Of a stretch of DNA of 12,160 nucleotides, positions 1 to 12,160 are shown piece by piece. The notes under the pieces were generated by a model, which made no database searches, had not been told where the DNA came from, and saw only the letters and a program-made list of their open reading frames with translations. The translations under genes and the position numbers were made by a program. Positions within the stretch are counted from its first letter, which is position 1, and the number at the start of each line of letters is the position of its first letter. The stretch spans positions 1 to 12,160 of the IMG/VR virus record IMGVR_UViG_2728369554_000008; one strand, given 5' to 3'. Source of the stretch: a virus. Taxonomy: Duplodnaviria; Heunggongvirae; Uroviricota; Caudoviricetes.

Positions 1-339
1 TTATAATTTGTTACTGTGCCACTCAAGGGCAATATCTTTGAAGGTGTTGTTTAACTGCGTTTCCCGGGCAATCTTTTCCTCTCGCTTCACTTCCATCAGA
101 TCGATTCCCCCAGAGATACCTCTTTTAGCTTCTTCAAGTTTTGCAGGAGCATCAGCTAAGGTGACCTCAGGATACACACCTAGTGCTAACAGCTTCTCTT
201 TACCAGCTACACGATACTTGAGACGCCAATATTCTCCTCCACCAGGTTTTACCAGGAGGTACAGACCACCACCATCAGCCAACTTGTAAGCCTTCTCTTT
301 TGGCTTGGCAGTGTCTATTTGACGGGCATTGAGTTTCAC
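1..339 (-). CDS. P4-type tyrosine integrase, N-terminal arm-type DNA-binding domain only (112 aa; probably a truncated remnant)
   Basis: Minus-strand ORF starting at GTG 337-339 with GGAG about 9 nt upstream; the complement of positions 1-3 is TAA. Translation MKLNARQIDTAKPKEKAYKLADGGGLYLLVKPGGGEYWRLKYR...EWHSNKL matches the conserved N-terminus of P4-family integrases, which are normally about 400 aa, so the catalytic domain is missing from this frame. Confidence 0.7.
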   Translation of the reverse strand: MKLNARQIDTAKPKEKAYKLADGGGLYLLVKPGGGEYWRLKYRVAGKEKLLALGVYPEVTLADAPAKLEEAKRGISGGIDLMEVKREEKIARETQLNNTFKDIALEWHSNKL

Positions 340-493
340 TTGGGGGTATCTCCACTAAACTGAACAGCAAATCCCCTCAATTGCTTGTAGAGTTTGGGGT
401 ACTTAAATAGACGTCAAAAGACTAAAAGGGGCATTAATATACTGATTATAAGAGGTTTTTAAATACTTGAGTAGACTTGGGGAGACGTTAGAA

Positions 494-537
494 TGGTGCG
501 ATAATAGGAGTCGAACCTACGACCTTCGCATTACGAA
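494..537 (-). other. tRNA 3'-half remnant (tRNA-Thr(CGU)-like); putative attachment-site direct repeat, not a complete tRNA gene
   Basis: Reverse complement of 494-537 reads TTCGTAA-TGCGA-AGGTC-GTAGG-TTCGACT-CCTAT-TATCGC-A-CCA: anticodon loop with CGU, variable loop, T-arm with GGTTCGAnTCC, acceptor 3' strand and CCA. Sequence upstream of the anticodon loop (538-570) has no D-arm or 5' acceptor strand, and the acceptor strand is one nt short of canonical length. Confidence 0.6.
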
Positions 538-898
538 TTATAAGAATCCGCTTCTAATTCAAAGCATTACCCCATCAACACTGCGCTCACACGTCCCACC
601 ACATCAAAACATGTAAAGCCTTGCAAGCCATTGCGAGGCCTTATGTGTCTCAGTTTTGTCCCACCTTGTATTACGACTTGCATAGCCAATGAAGATAAAC
701 GTGACGACAAACGGCGCAGCAGTCTTCTTTTCCTTCATACTTTCCCCACCCAGCATGCATACCTTTATGCCATAACTGAAGTTTATGTCTGTTATGAGCG
801 AGGAGCGGAAGTCCGCAATTGTTCTTGCAACTAGGGCAGCTAAAAGACATGGCAGGCAAATGTCTACATGTAGGATACACCTGCTATCATAAAGAATC

Positions 899-1678
899 TT
901 AGTCCTGAAGCATTTTAACTTTCTTCTCATGCTTTTTATATTCGCCATTTATCCATTCAGGTTCTTCCCGAATAGCTGATCGCATACAGTGTGTTGGGAT
1001 ATCATTCCAGAAAGCTGTAATCGCATCTGCAAACTCTATAAACTGTGTTTCTGTAACCTCAAGTTGCTCATGACGTAGACTAAATCTATAGCCTCCTGGA
1101 ATATTGATATCCTGATAATACTCAGGATGCGCGACGGAAAGCTCCCGATGGGCATGGCCATCACCGTGCTTATAAACATTGACTACTTGGCGACAGGCAT
1201 CGATTTTTTCGTAATAAGCCTTGCCGGTGATATCCATCCCAACCCATTCTAGAATTTCAATTAGCCTTGGGAAGCCGATGTCCCAGATCATCGATGTTAC
1301 GGGTTTAGAGTCGAGCCAATGACTGAATTCACGGATACACTTTTCTCGAAGTTCCTTATCGAACTGGTGAAACATTCCTGCTGTCAGAGCAAGTGAAACC
1401 GTATTTTTCATATCACTGAGGGCAATCCAATGTGAAATTCCTTCATCATAAGCCTGTTCCCAGATAGCCCCCTCGTCGTCATAATCGGGGTCAAAACGCT
1501 TACCGGCGGCCTCATAGTAATCTTTTTCTTTCTGCCGAGCTTCAGCTTCAAGATCAGAATCGCTAAACTGCGAAAATAAACGTTTTCTGGCTTCAGAAAC
1601 ATAAAAATTGTGTTTGTCGAGGAAGTAAGCCCGATCAATGGTTGCAAAATAAAAAAGTGAAAAATCTTTTTCGCTCAT
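899..1678 (-). CDS. Hypothetical acidic protein, about 259 aa, function unknown (accessory cargo)
   Basis: ORF track gives 899-1756. The start is placed at the internal ATG (1676-1678) because GAGGGAG lies 6 nt upstream; the protein then begins MSEKDFSLFYF. It is rich in D/E, has an HGDGHAHRE segment, and matches no structural-phage motif I recognise. A hand count of line 1201-1260 gives 24/60 G+C. Confidence 0.7.
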   Translation of the reverse strand: MSEKDFSLFYFATIDRAYFLDKHNFYVSEARKRLFSQFSDSDLEAEARQKEKDYYEAAGKRFDPDYDDEGAIWEQAYDEGISHWIALSDMKNTVSLALTAGMFHQFDKELREKCIREFSHWLDSKPVTSMIWDIGFPRLIEILEWVGMDITGKAYYEKIDACRQVVNVYKHGDGHAHRELSVAHPEYYQDINIPGGYRFSLRHEQLEVTETQFIEFADAITAFWNDIPTHCMRSAIREEPEWINGEYKKHEKKVKMLQD

Positions 1679-2007
1679 GGGGATCTCCCTCGTTTCGTCA
1701 GTTCTACAAGCCCTTGGAAGTAGGCTGCTAATAAAGAAAAGATTACATTTGAACAACTGTGCAAGATAGCAGTACGCCTAAAGGTAGTGCAAGTATCCCA
1801 ACTAAGGTAACGATGCGTTTTCAAATATATGACTTAACGCTCGCGATATCCGCTTCTGGCACGAGGCGGACAGAACATGTGGACATGACGTCAGCTCTAA
1901 GCGAGGAGCTGATGCTAGCGGGGTAGGTTCAGTACAATCATAGGAGAGATCCAAAGTGTGCAGACACTGACTAAATTAAAGAAAATAGCATCTACGCTAT
2001 ATGGATA

Positions 2008-2928
2008 TTAATAATGTCTATGACGAATATCATTATACGCAGCCTCGGAAAGTTCGAATACCCGATCCAATCCGGAATGGGGTAATTCCACAACCAATCC
2101 CCGCTGAATAAGTTTATCGATCTGCATTAAAGCTATTTTATCTACAATAGATCGAGATAACTTAGGCGTTGCACCCAATAATACAGCTTTATATACTTCC
2201 ATAATTCTTACAATACTAGGCTCCCGATTACTATGCCTTAATTTAATAGCGCGAGTGAAACTAGGAAGCGAAAACTGTCGTCCTGACATGTTAAGTTCAA
2301 CATGTCCATAGAACATGTTAAATAGAATCCTTCGAAGTCCTTCATCAGATGATAAATAATCTATTAATTCTTCTTGTCTCTTTTCTTGAATCCAAGTTCT
2401 AATAAAGAGCCATCCTGATAATAACGATACACATAATAGATAGTATTGCGAATCAGGGAGCTGTAGCCAAGGTCCAATGATTGGGTTATCTTTAGCCGTA
2501 TTGGGAAACGTAAAAAAGAAAGCGCTTAGCGTCGCAAATACTCCTGACCCCAATCGAGGGAGAAATGCACGGGATCGTGTATCACTCCGAACTTCTGACT
2601 TTATTAATGAAGGCGTCAGACTAACAGTCTGAGTTCCTGTCGCAGTAATCACTTTAACCAAATCCATCACTTGTGACATGGGTATCAACTGTTTGTCATT
2701 TTCATCCGTAGATTTCTCAATAGACTGATTATCAATGAATTCTTTTGCTGAATTAAGGTGTTGCCATAGATTTTTTGACTCATCATCAATAAAAATACCA
2801 CTAGTATTGTCTGGATGTATTGATGCCATTTTTCTGACTATTGCCTGGCGTAACCCATTTGGGTCATTTTCCATAACATTAGAAAACTTAAAATATGCAG
2901 CAATTTCTTTATTATTTTTCCAGTCCAT
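2008..2928 (-). CDS. Hypothetical protein with two central hydrophobic segments, about 306 aa, very AT-rich (accessory cargo); start uncertain (2928 or 3003)
   Basis: ORF 2008-3003 in the track. No Shine-Dalgarno precedes the first ATG at 3003; the ATG at 2926-2928 (MDWKNNK) follows an AT-rich promoter-like stretch. Hydrophobic segments LGSGVFATLSAFFFTF and YYLLCVSLLSGWLFI. A hand count of line 2101-2160 gives 19/60 G+C. Confidence 0.65.
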   Translation of the reverse strand: MDWKNNKEIAAYFKFSNVMENDPNGLRQAIVRKMASIHPDNTSGIFIDDESKNLWQHLNSAKEFIDNQSIEKSTDENDKQLIPMSQVMDLVKVITATGTQTVSLTPSLIKSEVRSDTRSRAFLPRLGSGVFATLSAFFFTFPNTAKDNPIIGPWLQLPDSQYYLLCVSLLSGWLFIRTWIQEKRQEELIDYLSSDEGLRRILFNMFYGHVELNMSGRQFSLPSFTRAIKLRHSNREPSIVRIMEVYKAVLLGATPKLSRSIVDKIALMQIDKLIQRGLVVELPHSGLDRVFELSEAAYNDIRHRHY

Positions 2929-3472
2929 AGTAATTCTGCCCAATGAAGTAAAATATAAAATTTTATTTTTTCGTTTAGGTTGAGGTTTAATTAACAAAAG
3001 CATTAATGCTAAATCAAACGATAGTTCGCAATGACAATATAAACGTTTTCAGTGAGTTAAGCAATACTAGGAAATTATGAGACAGATTACGTCGCCTCCA
3101 CCATAATGATTAACGAACCGTACTTTTTGCAAAGTCCGCATCTGGCACATAGCAGACCAGAGACACTGGCGTAAAGCCATGGAGGATCGGTGGGAGGAGG
3201 TAAAAATCCTCTCATGCAAAAAATACGCAAAATCGATAACAGTTGGAAATCATTCAATACTCGCACTATCGAAAGTTCACCAGCCAACCGCAGCGCGTTC
3301 TTGCATACGACGTGGCTGCGGTTTCAACTCCGTCCCCCACCAATCATGATTGGGCAGTACCAGTACAGCACTAGTAAAAACTGGAAATAAGCAGTCTCAG
3401 CAAAATACCGGCCAGACGGTGAGAAGACAAAAAAGATACGCAAAGTAGCCGCGGCCCTTAGTGACATGAAAT

Positions 3473-3492
3473 CCCGCTATACGGGCTTTTTT
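3473..3492 (+). terminator. Candidate intrinsic terminator or attenuator hairpin upstream of the 3568 gene
   Basis: CCCG-CTATA-CGGG stem-loop followed directly by CTTTTTTGT on the plus strand. The stem is short (4 GC pairs), so function is uncertain. Confidence 0.3.
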
Positions 3493-3567
3493 GTATCTGC
3501 ACACGATTGATTATTAGGTCCGTATAGCTAATAGTGGTCTTAACCTACATATAGAATCAGAGACTTT

Positions 3568-4263
3568 ATGAAAAAGGAAATACTCAAGGCTCTTTGCCCT
3601 ACATGCGGTGGGTTACGTAACTGCACTGTGCATGGGAAGCTAACCACTAGCTGGGAGGATTCCCAATATCCAGTTTATGGGTACCATTACCATCACCTAC
3701 TCCAATGCAATGGCTGTGATACTGTCTTCTATCACCACAACGAACACTTCAGTGAGCATACTACCCACGAATATCGTGATGGTGAATTTGTAGAAACGCC
3801 TATAGATATGATCACTACCTATCCTGCCGCTGAAACATTTCAAGCTCCGATATGGTTATCCAAGCTTGAATCAGTTGATCGTCAGCTCTTTCAAATATTT
3901 AATGAAATGTATTCTTCATATACTTCTGACCATTTCATCCTTTCGTCCATCGGTTTACGGACGATTTTTGATCGAACTGCTGAACTGTTACAAATTCACC
4001 CCGGTTTGCCGCTTGGTGAAAAAGTTGAAAAATTAAAACAAGATGGAGTCATAGGCGACACTGAGGCATGCGTTATATCTTCTGTAATTGATGCAGGAAA
4101 CGCCGCCGCACATCGCAGTTGGAGCCCGAATAAAAGTGAGTTCGAACAAATGCTAGAAGCTATAGAAAGTTTTGTCCAAAGAACTATCTTGGGCAAAAAA
4201 TCACTTGAACATATAACCAAACAACTCCCACCTCGGGTTACAAGACCTAAAAATAGTGCATAA
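3568..4263 (+). CDS. Zinc-ribbon plus DUF4145-like domain protein, 231 aa (candidate accessory/defence gene)
   Basis: N-terminus has CPTC (x33) CNGC, a four-cysteine zinc-ribbon pattern. The C-terminus LGEKVEKLKQDGVIGDTEACVISSVIDAGNAAAHRSWSPNKSEFEQMLEAIESFV fits the remembered DUF4145 pattern (L-x-x-K-I-x-x-L, then G-N-x-A-A-H). A hand count of line 3901-3960 gives 22/60 G+C. It is convergent with the invertase gene. Confidence 0.8.
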   Translation: MKKEILKALCPTCGGLRNCTVHGKLTTSWEDSQYPVYGYHYHHLLQCNGCDTVFYHHNEHFSEHTTHEYRDGEFVETPIDMITTYPAAETFQAPIWLSKLESVDRQLFQIFNEMYSSYTSDHFILSSIGLRTIFDRTAELLQIHPGLPLGEKVEKLKQDGVIGDTEACVISSVIDAGNAAAHRSWSPNKSEFEQMLEAIESFVQRTILGKKSLEHITKQLPPRVTRPKNSA

Positions 4264-4289
4264 TCCGCGATCATCAATGTGGCGTAAGG

Positions 4290-4847
4290 TTATGGTTTAC
4301 TTGCTACAGGGAATTTTTTATACACCGTTGAAATACCCAGATCATAAATCAGTGCGACTTGCTGCTGATATATTCCCGATTCAATCAACCTGCCAGCCTG
4401 CTCCCATTGTTCTACTGTCAGCTTTGGCTTTCGCCCACCATTCCTCCCTTCTTGTCGTGCTGCGGCAAAGCCCGCCCTAGTACGTTCGACAATAAGCTCT
4501 CGCTCCATTTCAGCCAGGGCACCCATCACATGAAAGAAAAAGCGCCCCATTGGTGTGCTGGTATCAATAGCATCCGTCAGGCTGCGAAAATTAACGCCAC
4601 GTTCGCGCAACTCCTCCACCAGCACGACAAGATGCCGCATACTGCGCCCCAGTCGGTCCAGTTTCCAGACTACCAGAGTGTCACCTGCTGATAATGTTCT
4701 GAGCAGTTTTTTCAGTCCCGGTCGGTCGGACTTAGTGCCGCTGATCTTATCTTCAAAAATCAGCTCACATCCTGCACACTCCAGCGCATTACGCTGCAAT
4801 TCCGTATTCTGGTCATTTGTTGATACGCGGACATAGCCAATAAGCAT
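4290..4847 (-). CDS. pin: Site-specific DNA invertase, serine recombinase of the Pin/Gin/Hin/Cin family
   Basis: Translation MLIGYVRVSTNDQNT...GDTLVVWKLDRLGRSM...MGRFFFHVMGALAEMERELIVERT with a C-terminal helix-turn-helix: the catalytic Ser in YVRVST and the hallmark motifs of DNA invertases. The start is set at the ATG (4845-4847) preceded by AGGGGA; the track's extension to 4892 is not supported by family alignment. Confidence 0.95.
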   Translation of the reverse strand: MLIGYVRVSTNDQNTELQRNALECAGCELIFEDKISGTKSDRPGLKKLLRTLSAGDTLVVWKLDRLGRSMRHLVVLVEELRERGVNFRSLTDAIDTSTPMGRFFFHVMGALAEMERELIVERTRAGFAAARQEGRNGGRKPKLTVEQWEQAGRLIESGIYQQQVALIYDLGISTVYKKFPVASKP

Positions 4848-4874
4848 GAGCATTCCCCTGAGTAAAAACCGGGG

Positions 4875-5414
4875 ATGATGCCAGTTAGCCATAATCTCTG
4901 CATTTTCTTAAACGTTGGTTTGGGAGAAGGCTCTGCATTACCTGTTGGTGTCCCTGTTCCGTGGCCTTCAGCCACACCGCCAACAGGCTGGCTGAAATGC
5001 AATGGTGCCGCTTTTTCTGCTGAAGAATACCCGGAACTGACAAAGGCTTATCCGACAAATAAATTGCCTGATTTACGTGGTGAGTTTATTCGTGGCTGGG
5101 ATGACGGGCGGGGGATTGATACAGGTCGCTCTATTTTAAGTATTCAGGGGTATGCAACGGAGGATCATGCTCATGGATTACCGTCAAGATCCACGATTGT
5201 GACTGATGCAACGATTAATTTCTATTTTGATGAAAACTGGGTAAATAGTGGCACTGACATTATCAAAAGAGGAAACACAAACGATGCCGGATTACCAGCA
5301 CCGGATTATGGAACCTTTAAAACATATAAACAATCAGTGGCTGGTTTAGGTACCGCAGCCTCAGAAACGCGTCCGCGTAATATTGCATTTAACTATATCG
5401 TAAGGGCAGCCTGA
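4875..5414 (+). CDS. Alternative tail-fibre C-terminal cassette (Sv'-type), currently in the unexpressed orientation; functional coding begins at the crossover site near 4917
   Basis: Translation across the site reads NVGLGEG, matching NLGLGEA in the constant part of the tail-fibre gene at 6812-6837. Downstream motifs WLKCNGAAFSAEEYPELTKAYPTNKLPDLRGEFIRGWDDGRG are typical of Mu/P1/e14-type fibre tips. There is no plausible independent start; the ATG at 4875 lies in the invertase upstream region. Confidence 0.8.
   Translation: MMPVSHNLCIFLNVGLGEGSALPVGVPVPWPSATPPTGWLKCNGAAFSAEEYPELTKAYPTNKLPDLRGEFIRGWDDGRGIDTGRSILSIQGYATEDHAHGLPSRSTIVTDATINFYFDENWVNSGTDIIKRGNTNDAGLPAPDYGTFKTYKQSVAGLGTAASETRPRNIAFNYIVRAA
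4903..4928. repeat. Invertase crossover site 1 (hix/gix-like, 12-2-12)
   Basis: Plus strand TTTTCTTAAACG-TT-GGTTTGGGAGAA. Its reverse complement shares TTCTCCCAAACCAA with site 2, and it lies about 56 bp upstream of the invertase start. Confidence 0.8.
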
Positions 5415-6016
5415 TGCATAAAGCAATATTAAATAGTGAGCTTATTGCAACAAAGGCAGGGGATGTTACCGTTTATAACTACGATGGTGAAACACTGGAA
5501 TATATTTCCACGTCAACTGAATATCTTGCTGTGGGTGTCGGTATTCCGGCATGTTCCTGTCTTGATGCACCTGGCATACATAAGGTTGGTTATGCAATCT
5601 GTCGTTCTGTGAATTTAAATTCATGGGAATATGTGCCAGACCATCGCGGTGAAATCGTCTATAGCACCGAAACAGGAGAATCAAAAGAAATCACAGCTCC
5701 GGGTGATTACCCTGAAAATACAACCACTATCGCCCCTTTATCTCCATACGATAAATGGGATGGTGAGAAATGGGTGACCGATACTGAGGCACAGCATAGC
5801 GCCGCAGTCGAAGCGGCAGAAGCACAACGCCAGTCACTGATTGATGCTGCAATGGCTTCCATTAGTCTGATTCAGCTGAAATTACAAGCCGGACGGAAAC
5901 TGACGCAGGCAGAAACAACCCGACTTAACGCCGTGCTGGATTACATTGACGCGGTGACGGCAACAGATACCAGCACCGCGCCGGATGTCATCTGGCCTGA
6001 ACTGCCGGAGGCGTAG
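5414..6016 (+). CDS. Tail-fibre assembly protein (Tfa/U'-type), partner of the silent fibre cassette
   Basis: Its ATG overlaps the TGA of the preceding cassette (TGATG). The C-terminus LDYIDAVTATDTSTAPDVIWPELPEA parallels the C-terminus of the opposite-strand Tfa, as in paired U/U' chaperones. Confidence 0.85.
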   Translation: MHKAILNSELIATKAGDVTVYNYDGETLEYISTSTEYLAVGVGIPACSCLDAPGIHKVGYAICRSVNLNSWEYVPDHRGEIVYSTETGESKEITAPGDYPENTTTIAPLSPYDKWDGEKWVTDTEAQHSAAVEAAEAQRQSLIDAAMASISLIQLKLQAGRKLTQAETTRLNAVLDYIDAVTATDTSTAPDVIWPELPEA

Positions 6017-6431
6017 GCCATTCAATATCTGGAGCACTGGAGATATCCACCAGTTCCAGTGCGTCCAGGTAATCCAGCCACAAATTATATTGCGCCAGTT
6101 CCTCGCCTTTCAGACGACCAATAGCGGCTTTACCGGGCCATTGTTTACTGTTCATGTATTCGTTGGCCTGGTTAATTAGTAGCTGTCTTTCTGATTCAGT
6201 AATTTCAATAAGCTCTTCATGCGTGGGTGGAGGAATATCTGCCCACGCAGGCAGCCCATCATCTCCGGCAATACGGATTTTTCCTTGTGGCGGTTCAGCC
6301 ATAAACTCACTGATAATATTTTGATTTACTTCCTTAGCGTCTGATAAATCCCATCCCTCTGATTTATATTTATCAATCATATCCACAGGGAAAAAAGCAT
6401 TATGCCTTGCGCTATAAACATATTCGTTCAT
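5988..6431 (-). CDS. Tail-fibre assembly protein (Tfa/U-type), partner of the expressed fibre
   Basis: Start is set at the ATG (6429-6431, MNEYVY) preceded by AGGGTGA; the track begins at an upstream GTG (6440). C-terminus LWLDYLDALELVDISSAPDIEWPTPP. Its 3' end overlaps the convergent Tfa gene by about 29 bp. Confidence 0.85.
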   Translation of the reverse strand: MNEYVYSARHNAFFPVDMIDKYKSEGWDLSDAKEVNQNIISEFMAEPPQGKIRIAGDDGLPAWADIPPPTHEELIEITESERQLLINQANEYMNSKQWPGKAAIGRLKGEELAQYNLWLDYLDALELVDISSAPDIEWPTPPAVQAR

Positions 6432-6451
6432 ATAAATCACCCTGAATAAAA

Positions 6452-7114
6452 TTACTCACCAACAGCCCACCAACTGTAATTCATCGATACCGTGTCGCTG
6501 GTTGATGACGTTCTGTAAGCAGAATTAAAGCCGGTTAACGTTGGGTCTTCTGCAGTCATCACGAACCCTCGCCCAGCGCCTAAAGGCGCACCGCCATCAC
6601 CAGAATGAGTAAGCATGGCGCAGTCCGCTTTTTTGGGGAAAGGGATGCTGAATGTAATTCTCATTGTTTGCGTCGATAATTTCGGCGTAACCGCACCACG
6701 ACCATATTGCAGGATTTTCCCGTTGGGTAATTTCATCCATCCATCACCACTGGCAAAAGAGGCCATGTCCGGTATCTGATTTTCCCCTGTTCCAACCCCC
6801 CGTTTCGCCGCTTCTCCCAAACCAAGGTTTTCGAGAGCCGTTGGTACTGTGCCATCCGATTTGATATCACCAAACGGATTCTTGCGGCTTAACAGCAGCG
6901 CACGAAGCGCTGTAAGCAGCTGGTCATGCCGCCCCTTCTCCAGGCTGGCACCGGATGCCTCCACCACGCTGCAAAGCTCCTCCTGCAACATGTCAAAGTA
7001 GTCATCATCCAGATCGGTGGCAGGCGTGCCGGTCTGGGGGTTACCACGGGTAAAACCGTTCTTACCCGCGCCGAACTTATCCTTCTGCGCGGTTTTCGTG
7101 TCTATACGATGCAT
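6452..7114 (-). CDS. Tail-fibre protein (constant N-terminal part fused to the currently expressed variable C-terminal part)
   Basis: N-terminus [67 protein letters not shown] is a conserved prophage tail-fibre N-terminal domain. Crossover site 2 lies inside the gene at 6812-6837, so residues after ALENLGLGE are exchangeable. Confidence 0.9.
6812..6837. repeat. Invertase crossover site 2 (hix/gix-like, 12-2-12), inside the tail-fibre gene
   Basis: Plus strand TTCTCCCAAACC-AA-GGTTTTCGAGAG, an imperfect palindrome with an AA core. It is inverted relative to site 1 (plus-strand core TT) and resembles hixL as I remember it (TTCTTGAAAACC-AA-GGTTTTTGATAA). Confidence 0.8.
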
Positions 7115-7117
7115 GAA

Positions 7118-7702
7118 TTACTCCGGATATTTAAAAATTACGTAGGTATGCGACGGGCAGAGTTTGTTAAGCACACACTCGACAACGGTGTCGCCCCAGA
7201 TACGCAGTGCGGAATCACAGGGATCGCCACATGTCATCCAGGTGGTGTTGGTGGCGGCTGGCATGTTGACCTGCCAGTAATACCGCCATTCCGGCGCATT
7301 CACCGCGTCAGTACAGGCCGATGAGCAGGTGAACGTGCTTTTGTCGTATCGCGTGATGGTGGCGTCTGGTCTGCCCAGGGCAGCAAGCTGTGCAAGGTAA
7401 AAATCCTCATTGATGCCGCCCGCCAGGTTAACCTTCGCATCCAGTCGTTGCTGACGCTGGCGAAGGGTCTGTGTCCCTGCGGGAATACATTCATCCGGCA
7501 GGCCGCACAGACGCTCCCAGCGGTTTATCAGTTCGGTGGTGGTGCGCGGATCCAGCTCCCGCATCAGGGCATCCGCACGCTGATGAACGCGGGTTAATGA
7601 CGGTGCCGCACCGGCAATCGCCGGATCTCTGGCTGACCACGCCGGACCGGGGGGCAACAGTGCCGACAACAGACGGATGTAATCATCGTTTGTCACGTCC
7701 AT
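7118..7702 (-). CDS. Mu gp48-like tail/baseplate protein (DUF2313, e14 YmfQ-like), 194 aa
   Basis: Lies directly upstream of the tail-fibre gene with a 3-nt gap, and its size and position match Mu gp48 and e14 YmfQ. Assigned by position and remembered family features; no search was run. Confidence 0.8.
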
Positions 7703-8751
7703 GAAATCGTCCCCAGTACCGCCAGTTCATTTTTTGCAATGGAGATATTGTCTGCCGGTGCAAGCAACTGATGGCTGTATTCCCCGTTCGCACCGGAAAT
7801 CGCCTCACTGATACGCGACACCTTCAGTTCTCCCTGCGGATAACCATCACGCAGCAGGAACGAACGCAACTCGGCGGTGATGGCAGCCCGTATTTCCGGT
7901 GTGTCCGGCGTCACGCGGATATGAAAATCCACTTTATGCGCCACCGGCCTGAATACATACAAATCAGAGCCTGCCACCGGGGCCAGTGGCTCAATGTGTT
8001 GTCTTGCCGCCGTTTCCGTTGATTCTTCCGGAATGGGATTAATCAGGTCACTGCCGGCAATCATCACACCGACAGTCCCCGTTCCCATCCAGTGGCGGTA
8101 TGTCCATGCGCGGGTAATGCCGGGCACTTCTTTAGCCCAGACAACATAGTCCCCGTCAGCCCCGCCCTGAGGAGTCCAGTAATACCGCTCAATGACGCGG
8201 GCGCGCCACGTTTCCAGATCTTCAGTATCAAATCCACCTGTCAGAGTGTCTGCCACGCCGGAAGACGGCAGACCATTAACCGGCGTGACCAGGATTAATG
8301 ACGTACCGTCGTCAGCGTTACCGACCGTGCCTGCACTTGAGCAGGCGATCGGCACGCGCAGGACACCACCGGCGCTGGTTGCATCGGCAGTTGCCGTGTA
8401 CTGAACCAGGTCATCGCGCTGAATAACACTCCCGGCGGTCACCTTCAGGCCATCGCTGACGCCTTCCCAGCGCATATACCCGCTGGCAGTCGTGGCCCCC
8501 TTGCGCGGACACCGTTTCATCGCAGCATGTCGCGCCAGCCAGGACTCATCGCACAGGTCAGGCAGCATGTTCATTGCCAGATAATCGATGTACCCGTAAA
8601 CCGTATGCAGCGCCGCCGCATACACCTTTGCCCGCACGTCTTCATCCATGCGCCGGAGCGTGTCGCTGACGTCCAGCCTGGCGAATAAATCGTTACGGAG
8701 CATACTGATATTTTCTGCCAGCGTCGGGCGCTGAAATTCACTGTCCGCCAT
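7693..8751 (-). CDS. Baseplate J-like protein (Mu gp47 homologue), 352 aa
   Basis: Size and position in the operon match Mu gp47. Its 3' end overlaps the gp48-like start by 10 nt. Confidence 0.85.
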
Positions 8752-9166
8752 GCGTTATCGCACTCCACAGATCATCAAAAGAAATCATTACCGGTCCGTC
8801 ACGACGCCAGAGAGTGATACTGTTACCCAGTTCATTAATCCCGGTGCGGCGGATATCCAGATCAATACGGGACACCACGCCGTCATCAATCATCCATTGC
8901 AGGCATTCGCGGATATACCCCCTTACCGTCAGCACCAGTTGATTGGTCAGTTTGCTGCGCTGAAGCAGCCACAGTCGGGAGCCGTAACGGTCATTCTGTA
9001 CCGCAGGCCAGGTATCCCCCCACCATCCCATCGGGACTTCGGCGTTGTCATCAGGCTCCGCCCGCCGCCAGGTAAACAGGGAAATCACCACAGCGCGGGT
9101 CAGCGGATCCAGCTGTGCGCTGGCGCAGGTGCGTTTACCGTTCACCGTCAGCCACAGTTCCATCAT
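8738..9166 (-). CDS. Mu gp46-like baseplate protein (Phage GP46 family), 142 aa
   Basis: Small protein between the gp45-like and gp47-like genes, overlapping both neighbours, as in Mu. Confidence 0.8.
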   Translation of the reverse strand: MMELWLTVNGKRTCASAQLDPLTRAVVISLFTWRRAEPDDNAEVPMGWWGDTWPAVQNDRYGSRLWLLQRSKLTNQLVLTVRGYIRECLQWMIDDGVVSRIDLDIRRTGINELGNSITLWRRDGPVMISFDDLWSAITHGGQ

Positions 9167-9711
9167 GCCTCCATCGCTTTATCAGGTTTGTCGGTGTTAC
9201 TGCCCTGACCGTTCTCTCTGTGACGATGCCCGTTATAGGCAAGCCGCATCGCTGACATGGTGGTACCGCCGGAGTCGCACAGGTCTTTCACCTGTCCGGT
9301 CACTTCCAGGTCCATTTCAAAACGTGCTCTGGGCGCATTGCGAAACGTGATCGTTTTACCTGCACCGTCCACCACAATCCCCTCCCGGGTCAGCGTCACG
9401 GACTGCCCCTGATCGTCATAGACCGCCACCTCACCCGTCTGCAGCCCTTTCAGGCGGTAGCGCCGGTCCGACACCGTAACAACCACCGCATGAGAACGGT
9501 CACCATCCGGAAACAACACCACCGCTTCCGCACCGCTGTTTGCCCTTGCGGTAAAACCGTAGGGTTCAAGATGTTCAACCCCGGCTTTGGGTTCACCGGC
9601 AATCAGGGACACATCCACGGTCTGACATTTCGTGGCGGCACTGATGCTTTTCACCACTGCCCGCCCAATCAGCCCGAGGAGTTGTCGCTGCATGGCTTCA
9701 ATCGTCCTCAT
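9163..9711 (-). CDS. Baseplate assembly/spike protein V-like (Mu gp45 homologue), 182 aa
   Basis: Position and size match Mu gp45. Stop and start overlap the neighbours (ATGA-type coupling). Confidence 0.8.
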   Translation of the reverse strand: MRTIEAMQRQLLGLIGRAVVKSISAATKCQTVDVSLIAGEPKAGVEHLEPYGFTARANSGAEAVVLFPDGDRSHAVVVTVSDRRYRLKGLQTGEVAVYDDQGQSVTLTREGIVVDGAGKTITFRNAPRARFEMDLEVTGQVKDLCDSGGTTMSAMRLAYNGHRHRENGQGSNTDKPDKAMEA

Positions 9712-10790
9712 CAGAACGGGTCCTCCTGTACTCTGGCTTTTTTCTTTTTCCGCGCGCCGGGGGCTTCGGGTTCAGGCAGATAAGCATCAGGCGGGCCGAC
9801 ACGGATTTCCGTCAGGGTGCCGTTCTGGTCCTGAGTAAACGTGACTTCCGAGACAAGCAGTTCGGTATTGTCGAAACCACAGACAGGATCGAAGACAATC
9901 ACCCGCTGGTTGGGCTGCCACAGCGTACCGTTACCCTGTCGCCAGCCCTGCACCACATAGGTGGTTTCATCCGTCCGCGCCGCCCGTTGCCGGGCTTCAA
10001 AGTCAGCACGCGCAATACAGCCTGCCCCCGTAGCCTGCCCTGTCTGCCTGATATACATCGGACGGTAACGGGCAATAAATGCGTCTTCTGTGCGGGCCCG
10101 CAGCGCGGTGGTGGTGGCCTCACCGAAATCATCGTCGTTTCCGGCACGCTGCCCCGCCACCTGGTAAACAGAAAACCGCTCCCGGATACTCTTCTCCGTA
10201 TCGCAGGAAAGGATGTTTTCCCCAAGTACCAGCGCGGTATGTGCCCGCGTTGAGCCAATACCGCCAATCACCAGCCTGCCGTGCGGGTCGTCGTAAGCCA
10301 GCGCCTGCTGCTGACCGAGTATTTTGTTGATCACCTCAATCACCGTTTCACCGTGATCAGGCTGGACATCAGGAATAACACCCGACGGCGCACCGCTGTT
10401 CACCACCTCAATGCCGAAAGGCGCAGCAAGCGCCTGCGCAATCTGAACCAGCGATCGTCCGTTAAACTGTGTCGGTTCGGCTGCACAGTCAATCAGGTCA
10501 GCGGTCAGACTACGCCCAGCAATACCGGTGCTGACCGAACGGGCATCATAACGAACGGGAGTCGCCTCCACCCAGCCGGTGATCACCAGCTCATCACCAA
10601 TCAGCACTTCCACTTTTGAACCGTTTTTAATACGCGGCTGAAGCGTGGTGATACCCTCATCTCCCGGCCACTGGCGGGTGATCTCCACACTGAAATCCCG
10701 CGTCAGCCGTTCAATACCGGCACCGATGCGCACCGATGTCCAGCCATTCCACTCCCGGCCATTTACCCGTAGCGTGACGTTATCATTCAT
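9711..10790 (-). CDS. Mu gp44(P)-like baseplate hub / phage late control D-family protein, 359 aa
   Basis: Position between the gp43-like and gp45-like genes, with a lysine-rich C-terminus (ARKKKKARVQEDPF). High G+C and translationally coupled to neighbours. Confidence 0.8.
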   Translation of the reverse strand: MNDNVTLRVNGREWNGWTSVRIGAGIERLTRDFSVEITRQWPGDEGITTLQPRIKNGSKVEVLIGDELVITGWVEATPVRYDARSVSTGIAGRSLTADLIDCAAEPTQFNGRSLVQIAQALAAPFGIEVVNSGAPSGVIPDVQPDHGETVIEVINKILGQQQALAYDDPHGRLVIGGIGSTRAHTALVLGENILSCDTEKSIRERFSVYQVAGQRAGNDDDFGEATTTALRARTEDAFIARYRPMYIRQTGQATGAGCIARADFEARQRAARTDETTYVVQGWRQGNGTLWQPNQRVIVFDPVCGFDNTELLVSEVTFTQDQNGTLTEIRVGPPDAYLPEPEAPGARKKKKARVQEDPF

Positions 10791-12160
10791 AGCACTGGCA
10801 CCTTCAGAGGGATCACCGGCACAAAGCCGGGATGCGTAATGGCATTACGCCGGATAATGTCCGCGTCACGCGCCGCGTTATCAAACCAGGTCGCCGCCAG
10901 CACCAGCGCGGGTAAGACCTCATCCGGCGTGCGCTGAATGATCCGTGCAGACTGTTCAAGGCGCGTGTTGATATCCGCATTCAGATCTGCTTTCACCCGG
11001 CGCAGCGCCAGAAACAGCGCATCACTGGTTGTACGGGACAACTCCTTATCAATTGCCGTATTCAGTGTGTCGCGAATGTCAGTCAGTTCTTCCCACGTCG
11101 GCAGGTCAACCGTGTTTTTCACCGCCGGTGCATTGTTCAGTGCCGGATGCGTGACGGAAGGCCAGCCGGTGCTCTGCGCGGGTGTTGTTGACTGCCCCAC
11201 TGCGGCATTCTGCATCACCGCGGAAATTGTTGGCGCAGGCAATCGGGTGATGGCATACGCCGCTTCGCTGATTGCGGTCGTACGAAGGGTGCTGGCAACC
11301 ACGTTACGCTGCTGCGTTGCCGTGGCGGTGGTTTTACTGTCCGTTTTCCAGACGCCGCGCGGTTGCAGATCGCTGCCGAGGCTGACACCGGAAAGCGTTT
11401 TGATCATGGTGACCAGGTCGCTGGCGTTACCATAAAGGCGTTTCCCGGTACGCCACATTTTCTGCACCTGCTCAACGAAATTTTTGCCTGACGATGGCGG
11501 CGGCAGAAGTACCGAGATATCCCCCTGCAACAGCCTGGCGGCATCCGATACGGCAGAATCCACCACTTTCATCGCATCAGAAACATACCCCAGCATTATG
11601 CTGGCATTACCGATAACGTCGTTCTGCACGAAATCCGCCACACCATCGATACTGAAACCGCTGAAGCTGTCACTGATGCAGTCATCCAGTGCAGAACAGG
11701 ATGACATCAGCGTCTGCGCCGTCGCCACACCTGATGTGGGGTAAGAGAGTTCTCCTGCTTCGACAAACTTCAGGTCAAAGCGGACAATACGCCCTTCACT
11801 TTTCGATGTGCTGACCCGAACTTCCCCGTCAACACAGACTTTCAGCTCACCATATGTCGGGTGGACAAGCGTGCCGGGACCGGGTTTATTCAGCGCTTCA
11901 ATCAGGCGATCGCGCTGGTCAAAGCAGTCATCTCCCACCACATAAGCTGTGATGGACGGGCGGAAAGTGACTTTTCCCAGATCTTCGGTATAGGGCTTGT
12001 CGCGGTTCGGGTATTCGTGCGTTTCCACACGACGACCGGTTCCCGCACTTTCTTCTTCAACCTTAAACGGCACACCTCGAAATGATGCTTCAAGTAGCTT
12101 TTCACGCCAGCCACTTCGAGAATCAGAGGATAGGTACGAAGAAATATGAGAAAAATCCAT
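10787..12160 (-). CDS. Mu gp43(N)-like DNA circularisation protein; the ATG coincides with the window edge, so the true start may lie outside
   Basis: N-terminal region WREKLLEASFRGVPFKVEEESAGTGRRVETHEYPNRDKPYTEDLGKV...GPGTLVHPTYGEL matches the DNA circularisation N-terminal domain as I remember it, followed by a long Ala/Thr/Ser-rich region. Overlaps the gp44-like start by 4 nt. Confidence 0.85.
   Translation of the reverse strand: MDFSHISSYLSSDSRSGWREKLLEASFRGVPFKVEEESAGTGRRVETHEYPNRDKPYTEDLGKVTFRPSITAYVVGDDCFDQRDRLIEALNKPGPGTLVHPTYGELKVCVDGEVRVSTSKSEGRIVRFDLKFVEAGELSYPTSGVATAQTLMSSCSALDDCISDSFSGFSIDGVADFVQNDVIGNASIMLGYVSDAMKVVDSAVSDAARLLQGDISVLLPPPSSGKNFVEQVQKMWRTGKRLYGNASDLVTMIKTLSGVSLGSDLQPRGVWKTDSKTTATATQQRNVVASTLRTTAISEAAYAITRLPAPTISAVMQNAAVGQSTTPAQSTGWPSVTHPALNNAPAVKNTVDLPTWEELTDIRDTLNTAIDKELSRTTSDALFLALRRVKADLNADINTRLEQSARIIQRTPDEVLPALVLAATWFDNAARDADIIRRNAITHPGFVPVIPLKVPVL

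Follow-up and report, generated by a model that had tools for sequence, protein, structure and literature searches.

The 12,160-nt stretch of DNA analysed here (the window) very probably carries the attR of a temperate SfV-family phage inserted in the E. coli tRNA gene thrW, lying beside the relic of an older P4-type integrase. This assignment was made by comparing the sequence with phage genomes, with occupied and unoccupied thrW sites and with the far prophage end in a close relative. The features and their coordinates are listed in Table 1.

Table 1. Features of the window around the thrW junction and in the adjoining prophage end
Feature	Position	Strand	Remarks
Integrase stub, P4-type tyrosine, 112 aa	1..339	-	GTG start at 339, TAA stop 3..1
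Spacer, thrW 3' end to integrase start	340..493	-	Old P4-type attL-side arm; host-side arm (B') for the SfV-like phage
thrW 3' part, displaced	494..538	-	att core of attR, anticodon loop to CCA, 45 nt
attR phage-side arm	539..660		In SfV, DNA between attP and gtrA; blastn 96% over 488-660
Prophage right end, SfV family	661..12160		Cargo ORFs, invertase and invertible tail-fibre segment, Mu-like baseplate/tail genes; continues past the window
Cargo ORF	899-1756		PHROG 19541
Cargo ORF	2008-3003		No Pfam, NCBIfam, PADLOC or PHROG match
Cargo ORF, DUF4145	3568-4263		PHROG 1305, 'DNA binding protein'

The right boundary of the prophage in thrW

Read on the minus strand, positions 538 to 494 (ATTCGTAATGCGAAGGTCGTAGGTTCGACTCCTATTATCGCACCA) correspond to the last 46 nt of E. 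coli thrW minus one G, which is missing from the 3' strand of the acceptor stem (ATCGGCACCA in the core, ATCGCACCA in the window); 45 of the 46 core nucleotides are present. The intact tRNA-Thr(CGU) gene used for this comparison, GCCGATATAGCTCAGTTGGTAGAGCAGCGCATTCGTAATGCGAAGGTCGTAGGTTCGACTCCTATTATCGGCACCA, was taken from CFE299 (locus L003), the closest complete genome, which is 99.5% identical to the window over positions 1-3326. Positions 499-538 are an exact match (40/40) to the opening 40 nt of the thrW-derived core, ATTCGTAATGCGAAGGTCGTAGGTTCGACTCCTATTATCG. This match occurs once in the window and in none of 200 shuffles (chance expectation 0). The published 46-nt att core of phages SfI, SfII, SfV, SfX and P22 is ATTCGTAATGCGAAGGTCGTAGGTTCGACTCCTATTATCGGCACCA (PMC3636060).

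ARAGORN detected no intact tRNA gene across the window (0 genes), and no Rfam tRNA match was found in positions 1-2000, even at E ≤ 10. As both searches came back empty, positions 494-538 are a tRNA fragment and not a gene. The first-pass annotation had also described a tRNA 3' half here without an intact gene around it, and that description is upheld; the span that it gave (494-537) was one base short at the 5' end.

We then compared both sides of this fragment with phage and chromosomal sequences and observed the following. By sequence comparison, the window is a piece of E. coli chromosome. The genomes of SfV, SfI and SfIV match it from position 488/492 rightwards, with 96-97% identity in the Mu-like tail module. 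The attP of SfV (U82619), together with its gtrA-side arm, aligns to window positions 488-660 with 96% identity (blastn). In the annotation of SfV the gene order is int, attP, gtrA-gtrB-gtrV and then the tail fibre genes. On the host side, positions 1-540 align to strain 536 with 0 mismatches and 1 gap, the gap being the missing G of the core.

The DNA flanking the core differs between the site types in an informative way. In attP the arrangement is ...gcggattctTATA-core-tttaaatcaataag, and in the attL of CFE299, where thrW is intact, it is thrW 5' half-core-tttaaatcaataag. The window has ...gcggattcttATA-core-ttctaacgtctcccc, and strain 536 has other DNA-core-ttctaacgtctcccc. The unoccupied site, with an intact thrW followed directly by ttctaacg... 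and the stub, is found in Nissle 1917, ATCC 11775 and many other strains. Since the window joins a phage arm, the core and the DNA that used to lie downstream of thrW, its tRNA piece is the attR copy. The matches of the phage genomes to the right, the aligned attP arm and the junction flanks all bear out the earlier proposal that the fragment is the distal direct repeat of the right-hand prophage.

A 3' fragment with an internal 1-nt deletion might also be what remains of a decayed tRNA gene whose 5' half had been deleted by events unrelated to phage integration. The 5' boundary of the fragment, however, falls at exactly the same base as that of the published att core, and the DNA past this boundary is the SfV attP arm, not proA-side DNA. 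A decayed tRNA gene is contradicted by the comparison of the junction flanks, and we give this explanation next to no probability.

Under the attR assignment, the phage integrase would have recombined the 46-bp attP core, identical to the thrW 3' part, with the chromosomal thrW. This integration would have rebuilt an intact thrW at the far, int-proximal attL end and left the original thrW 3' part at the near end as a non-functional 45-nt duplicate. The fragment would be the substrate used by Int and Xis for excision, an activity that is predicted. In SfV, SfI, SfII, SfIV, SfX and P22, the attR in thrW has the same core (one G apart) at the same site beside proA. In contrast to the Shigella phages, whose host-side arm is the yaiC side, the host-side arm in the window is a relic of the vat island.

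The far end of the prophage could be followed in CFE299. Its chromosome carries, in order, proB, proA, an intact tRNA-Thr, a tyrosine integrase and a complete lambdoid/Mu-tail prophage, and continues with the thrW fragment, the stub, a MarR-family gene (vatX), vat, a defective IS1, an integrase scrap and yagU. The tRNA-Thr at this end (L003 28259-28334) adjoins the tyrosine recombinase and proA. The two copies of the core are ~40.8 kb apart; the second copy of the repeat is thus present at the far prophage end of this relative. By comparison with CFE299, vatX/vat would be expected to the left of the window on its own contig, and the intact thrW ~40 kb away on the right. Among the complete E. 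coli genomes, none was found that covers at least 80% of the window.

The attR core of CFE299 (L001 12494-12541) has a compensatory T-stem variant, GGAGG...CCTCT compared with GTAGG...CCTAT. This variant suggests that the fragment was once part of a functional variant tRNA 3' end brought by an earlier element.

The truncated integrase and the vat island

The stub covers the whole of the Pfam domain PF13356, Arm-DNA-bind_3 (positions 1-83 of 83, E = 9e-24), and matches the 413-position integrase model NF007246 over its positions 8-117. The C-terminal catalytic domain (PF00589, R-H-R-Y) was sought and is absent, the ORF stopping at codon 113. The stub has in common with P4-type (CP4-57-like) integrases their N-terminal Arm-DNA-bind_3 domain (DUF4102), which is complete; compared with a full-length enzyme of this type, it lacks residues 113-404, comprising the core-binding and catalytic parts. 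RefSeq annotates the same sequence as a pseudogene ('Arm DNA-binding domain-containing protein; incomplete; missing C-terminus').

A full-length allele of the gene was found in strain 123636, where a 404-aa integrase and a P4-like satellite (primase, Icd-like, antirepressor) lie beside the same attR. The stub is 92% identical at the amino-acid level to residues 1-112 of this integrase. With the 404-aa protein as a tblastn query, residues 1-112 alone were recovered from the window, from 25 kb of CFE299 (L001), from strain 536 (L004) and from the related contig L013. In a three-way alignment, the window and CFE299 track the full-length gene for 112 codons and diverge from it fully at AAATTA/TAA. 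Beyond this break the full-length gene continues as AAAAAATGGTCTGC..., whereas the relic passes into unrelated AT-rich DNA, TCACAATAATAGTGTATATAA... (TCACAATAATAGTG...), towards vatX and vat. Within the window, position 3 alone (TAA vs AAA) separates the relic junction from the full-length allele.

The homology to the integrase ends at the stop codon, which indicates that a deletion or replacement truncated the gene and created the stop at the junction. The integrase cannot be recovered by correcting the frame, since its catalytic part is absent and not frameshifted; lacking this domain, the stub is a pseudogene unable to recombine DNA. A frameshifted or downstream catalytic domain was rejected, as tblastn gave nothing past residue 112 in the window or in the 25 kb of CFE299. 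The ORF and its PF13356 match agree with the initial description of a 112-aa integrase N-terminal domain that ends in a stop, has no catalytic domain and lies on the same strand as the tRNA fragment upstream of it. Following the reading frame past position 1 in CFE299, strain 536 and L013, by alignment or tblastn, likewise did not recover a full-length integrase, the catalytic part being missing rather than frameshifted.

The stop codon of the stub, at positions 1-3, forms the very start of the window and coincides with the break point of the integrase homology. Such a start is compatible with a provirus call trimmed at the end of a gene, with ~540 bases of non-phage chromosomal DNA included.

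The stop could alternatively be a point nonsense mutation (AAA to TAA, codon 113) in a complete P4-like integrase, in which case the catalytic domain and the satellite would lie to the left of the window and two potentially recent elements would form a true tandem. Strain 123636 has precisely this layout, with its full-length 404-aa integrase and P4-like satellite; a single base of the window separates TAA from the full-length AAA, and AAAAAATGGTCTGCTGG would then be the sequence leftwards. However, the first 1000 bases of the window are only 95.5% identical to strain 123636, while positions 1-540 have no mismatch to the relic allele of strain 536. The 336-nt coding part differs from the full-length allele by 19 changed codons and 9 amino-acid changes, and every near-identical relative, including L013 with its missing G, continues into vatX DNA. 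We therefore consider a nonsense mutant highly improbable and retain the truncation by deletion or replacement.

The relatives also indicate what adjoins the relic. In strain 536, CS18F, CFE299 and L013, the vat island begins with DNA identical to the stub and the spacer upstream of it, and vatX and vat follow. The order from the stub to vatX/vat was seen in the relatives L001, L004, L005 and L013; the window itself begins at the stop codon. The vat/vatX island has been located between yagU and proA, adjoining thrW (PMC6592367), and thrW is listed as one of the tRNA genes most often used as integration hotspots in E. coli (PMC7545054). Parreira and Gyles (2003), as cited in these two papers (PMC7545054, PMC6592367), placed the VAT-PAI of ExPEC/APEC at thrW.

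Of 5426 complete E. coli genomes, 542 matched a 601-nt probe across the break with at least 99% identity. A further ~455 genomes match the integrase half only, from probe position 302-305, and in those listed this sequence lies inside genes annotated as full-length integrases. In strain 536, the position of the prophage beside the same fragment and stub is taken by a different large island, of the PAI III536 type. This shows serial accretion of elements at the site, with the vat relic innermost.

The host chromosome would already have carried the older P4-type remains, that is, the attL arm (340-493) and 112 codons (339..1), directly after thrW when the phage arrived. A deletion or replacement would have cut the older integrase gene and in the same step made the TAA stop, from which the DNA would lead to vatX and vat. 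The first-pass annotation had read the stub as what a second element left behind at this tRNA. This stands, as a relic integrase heads the vat/vatX island and a full-length allele with its satellite exists in strain 123636. Of its choice between tandem and decayed elements, decay was confirmed and a recent tandem phage was not: the second element is a fixed, immobile island relic that predates the prophage.

A distal thrW-derived repeat for the vat island was sought in L001, with a tolerance of up to 3 mismatches over 21-25 nt, and was not found; the island is thus without a recognisable second att. An integrase remnant near yagU in L001 (5140-5283) gave no detectable homology to the integrase of the stub by tblastn. 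The prophage separates the island from the functional thrW, and vat and vatX themselves lie outside the window.

The spacer (340-493) is identical to that of strain 536, the sole gap of positions 1-540 falling in the core, and the same DNA directly follows the intact thrW in Nissle 1917, ATCC 11775 and others. It carries short motifs, TTGGGG(G)TA / ACTTGGGG, at 338-348, 393-401 and 475-482, and inverted at 369-381 (repeats D11 and D13). The strain with the full-length integrase has an extra 12-bp copy of the motif, TTGGGGGTACTT, in its spacer. These motifs are possible arm-type integrase binding sites, although they are too short to exclude chance.

We also considered that the stub may have been domesticated as an expressed, stand-alone DNA-binding protein, which might bind the arm-type repeats and modulate P4-type integration and excision or the expression of vatX/vat. 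Its ORF has a start codon, is uninterrupted and spans PF13356 in full, the sequence is shared at ≥99% identity by 540 genomes, its dN/dS relative to the full-length allele is 0.25, and a weak promoter-like site lies upstream at 463-436 (-). The high identity is no proof of selection, however, since the recent common descent of the vat-positive lineages would give the same. The dN/dS value mostly records changes from the time when both alleles were full-length and is uninformative on present-day selection. Promoter-like sites were not above the level in shuffles (4 vs 1.8 ± 1.3), and several of the amino-acid changes are non-conservative (R65P, R68L, P81L). A domesticated stub is very unlikely in our judgement.

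The missing G of the displaced core

Among the 407 complete genomes with this attR type, UPEC_U013 was the only exact match to a 126-nt probe among the matches listed. Nearly all other listed hits span 127 nt, that is, the G is kept; two more of the listed hits, H125 and H126, span only 126 nt, with 98.4% identity. An exact-pattern scan of IMG/VR gave one related contig with the same G loss, L013, which is 98% identical to the window, has different cargo and has a stub running into the vatX gene. The single-G deletion is common to window positions 494-538, L013 12831-12878 and NZ_CP058596.1 3944388-3944513. The core in the window differs from the SfV/P22-type core by this rare 1-nt deletion. 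The missing G is a real but rare variant of a displaced, unselected copy, and its loss probably arose in that displaced copy.

For integrases of the lambda type that insert into tRNA genes, the crossover is expected close to the end of the core that lies in the anticodon loop. The block of identity at thrW begins in the anticodon loop and, by analogy with those integrases, the crossover probably lies near this end. If it does, precise excision would leave thrW with a defective acceptor stem and would penalise loss of the prophage. We attach very little probability to the proposal that a domesticated stub acts at the thrW arm repeats to influence the hotspot elements or vatX/vat and that, separately, the missing G penalises prophage loss.

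Prophage cargo and the thrW hotspot

The slot at 600-4263 holds variable cargo where SfV-type phages carry gtrA, gtrB and gtrC beside attP. Compared with those phages, unrelated cargo ORFs and an invertase cassette replace the O-antigen modification genes gtrABC. The cargo ORFs next to attR could not be assigned to a defence system or a family by scanning with PADLOC, Pfam and NCBIfam.

A Gin/Cin-type serine invertase with Resolvase and HTH_7 domains is encoded at 4290-4892 (-). Beside it lies a segment of ~1.9 kb bounded by 20-nt inverted repeats (4910-4929 and 6811-6830, 95% complementary), and between the repeats are opposed tail-fibre C-terminal and tail-fibre-assembly genes (region 4290-7114). 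From its gene content and repeats, the invertase with this segment looks like a putative invertible host-range cassette.

The DUF4145 gene, the invertase and the tail module (3218-12160) recur in E. coli prophages adjoining dusA (L007-L012), together with another integrase and dinI. This resemblance indicates that the thrW prophage is a mosaic, its tail end being common to the dusA-integrating phages.

The arrangement described here is ordinary, already known, fully accounted for by established biology and annotated in hundreds of genomes. It places the window in the E. coli chromosome between proA and yagU, at the thrW hotspot for integration, and has little importance beyond annotation. The right boundary of the prophage is fixed to the base, with the core at 494-538 and phage DNA from 539, and positions 1-493 are chromosomal island DNA and not phage, which is useful for trimming the provirus call. 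The locus is a textbook example of how mobile elements accumulate one after another at a single tRNA gene.
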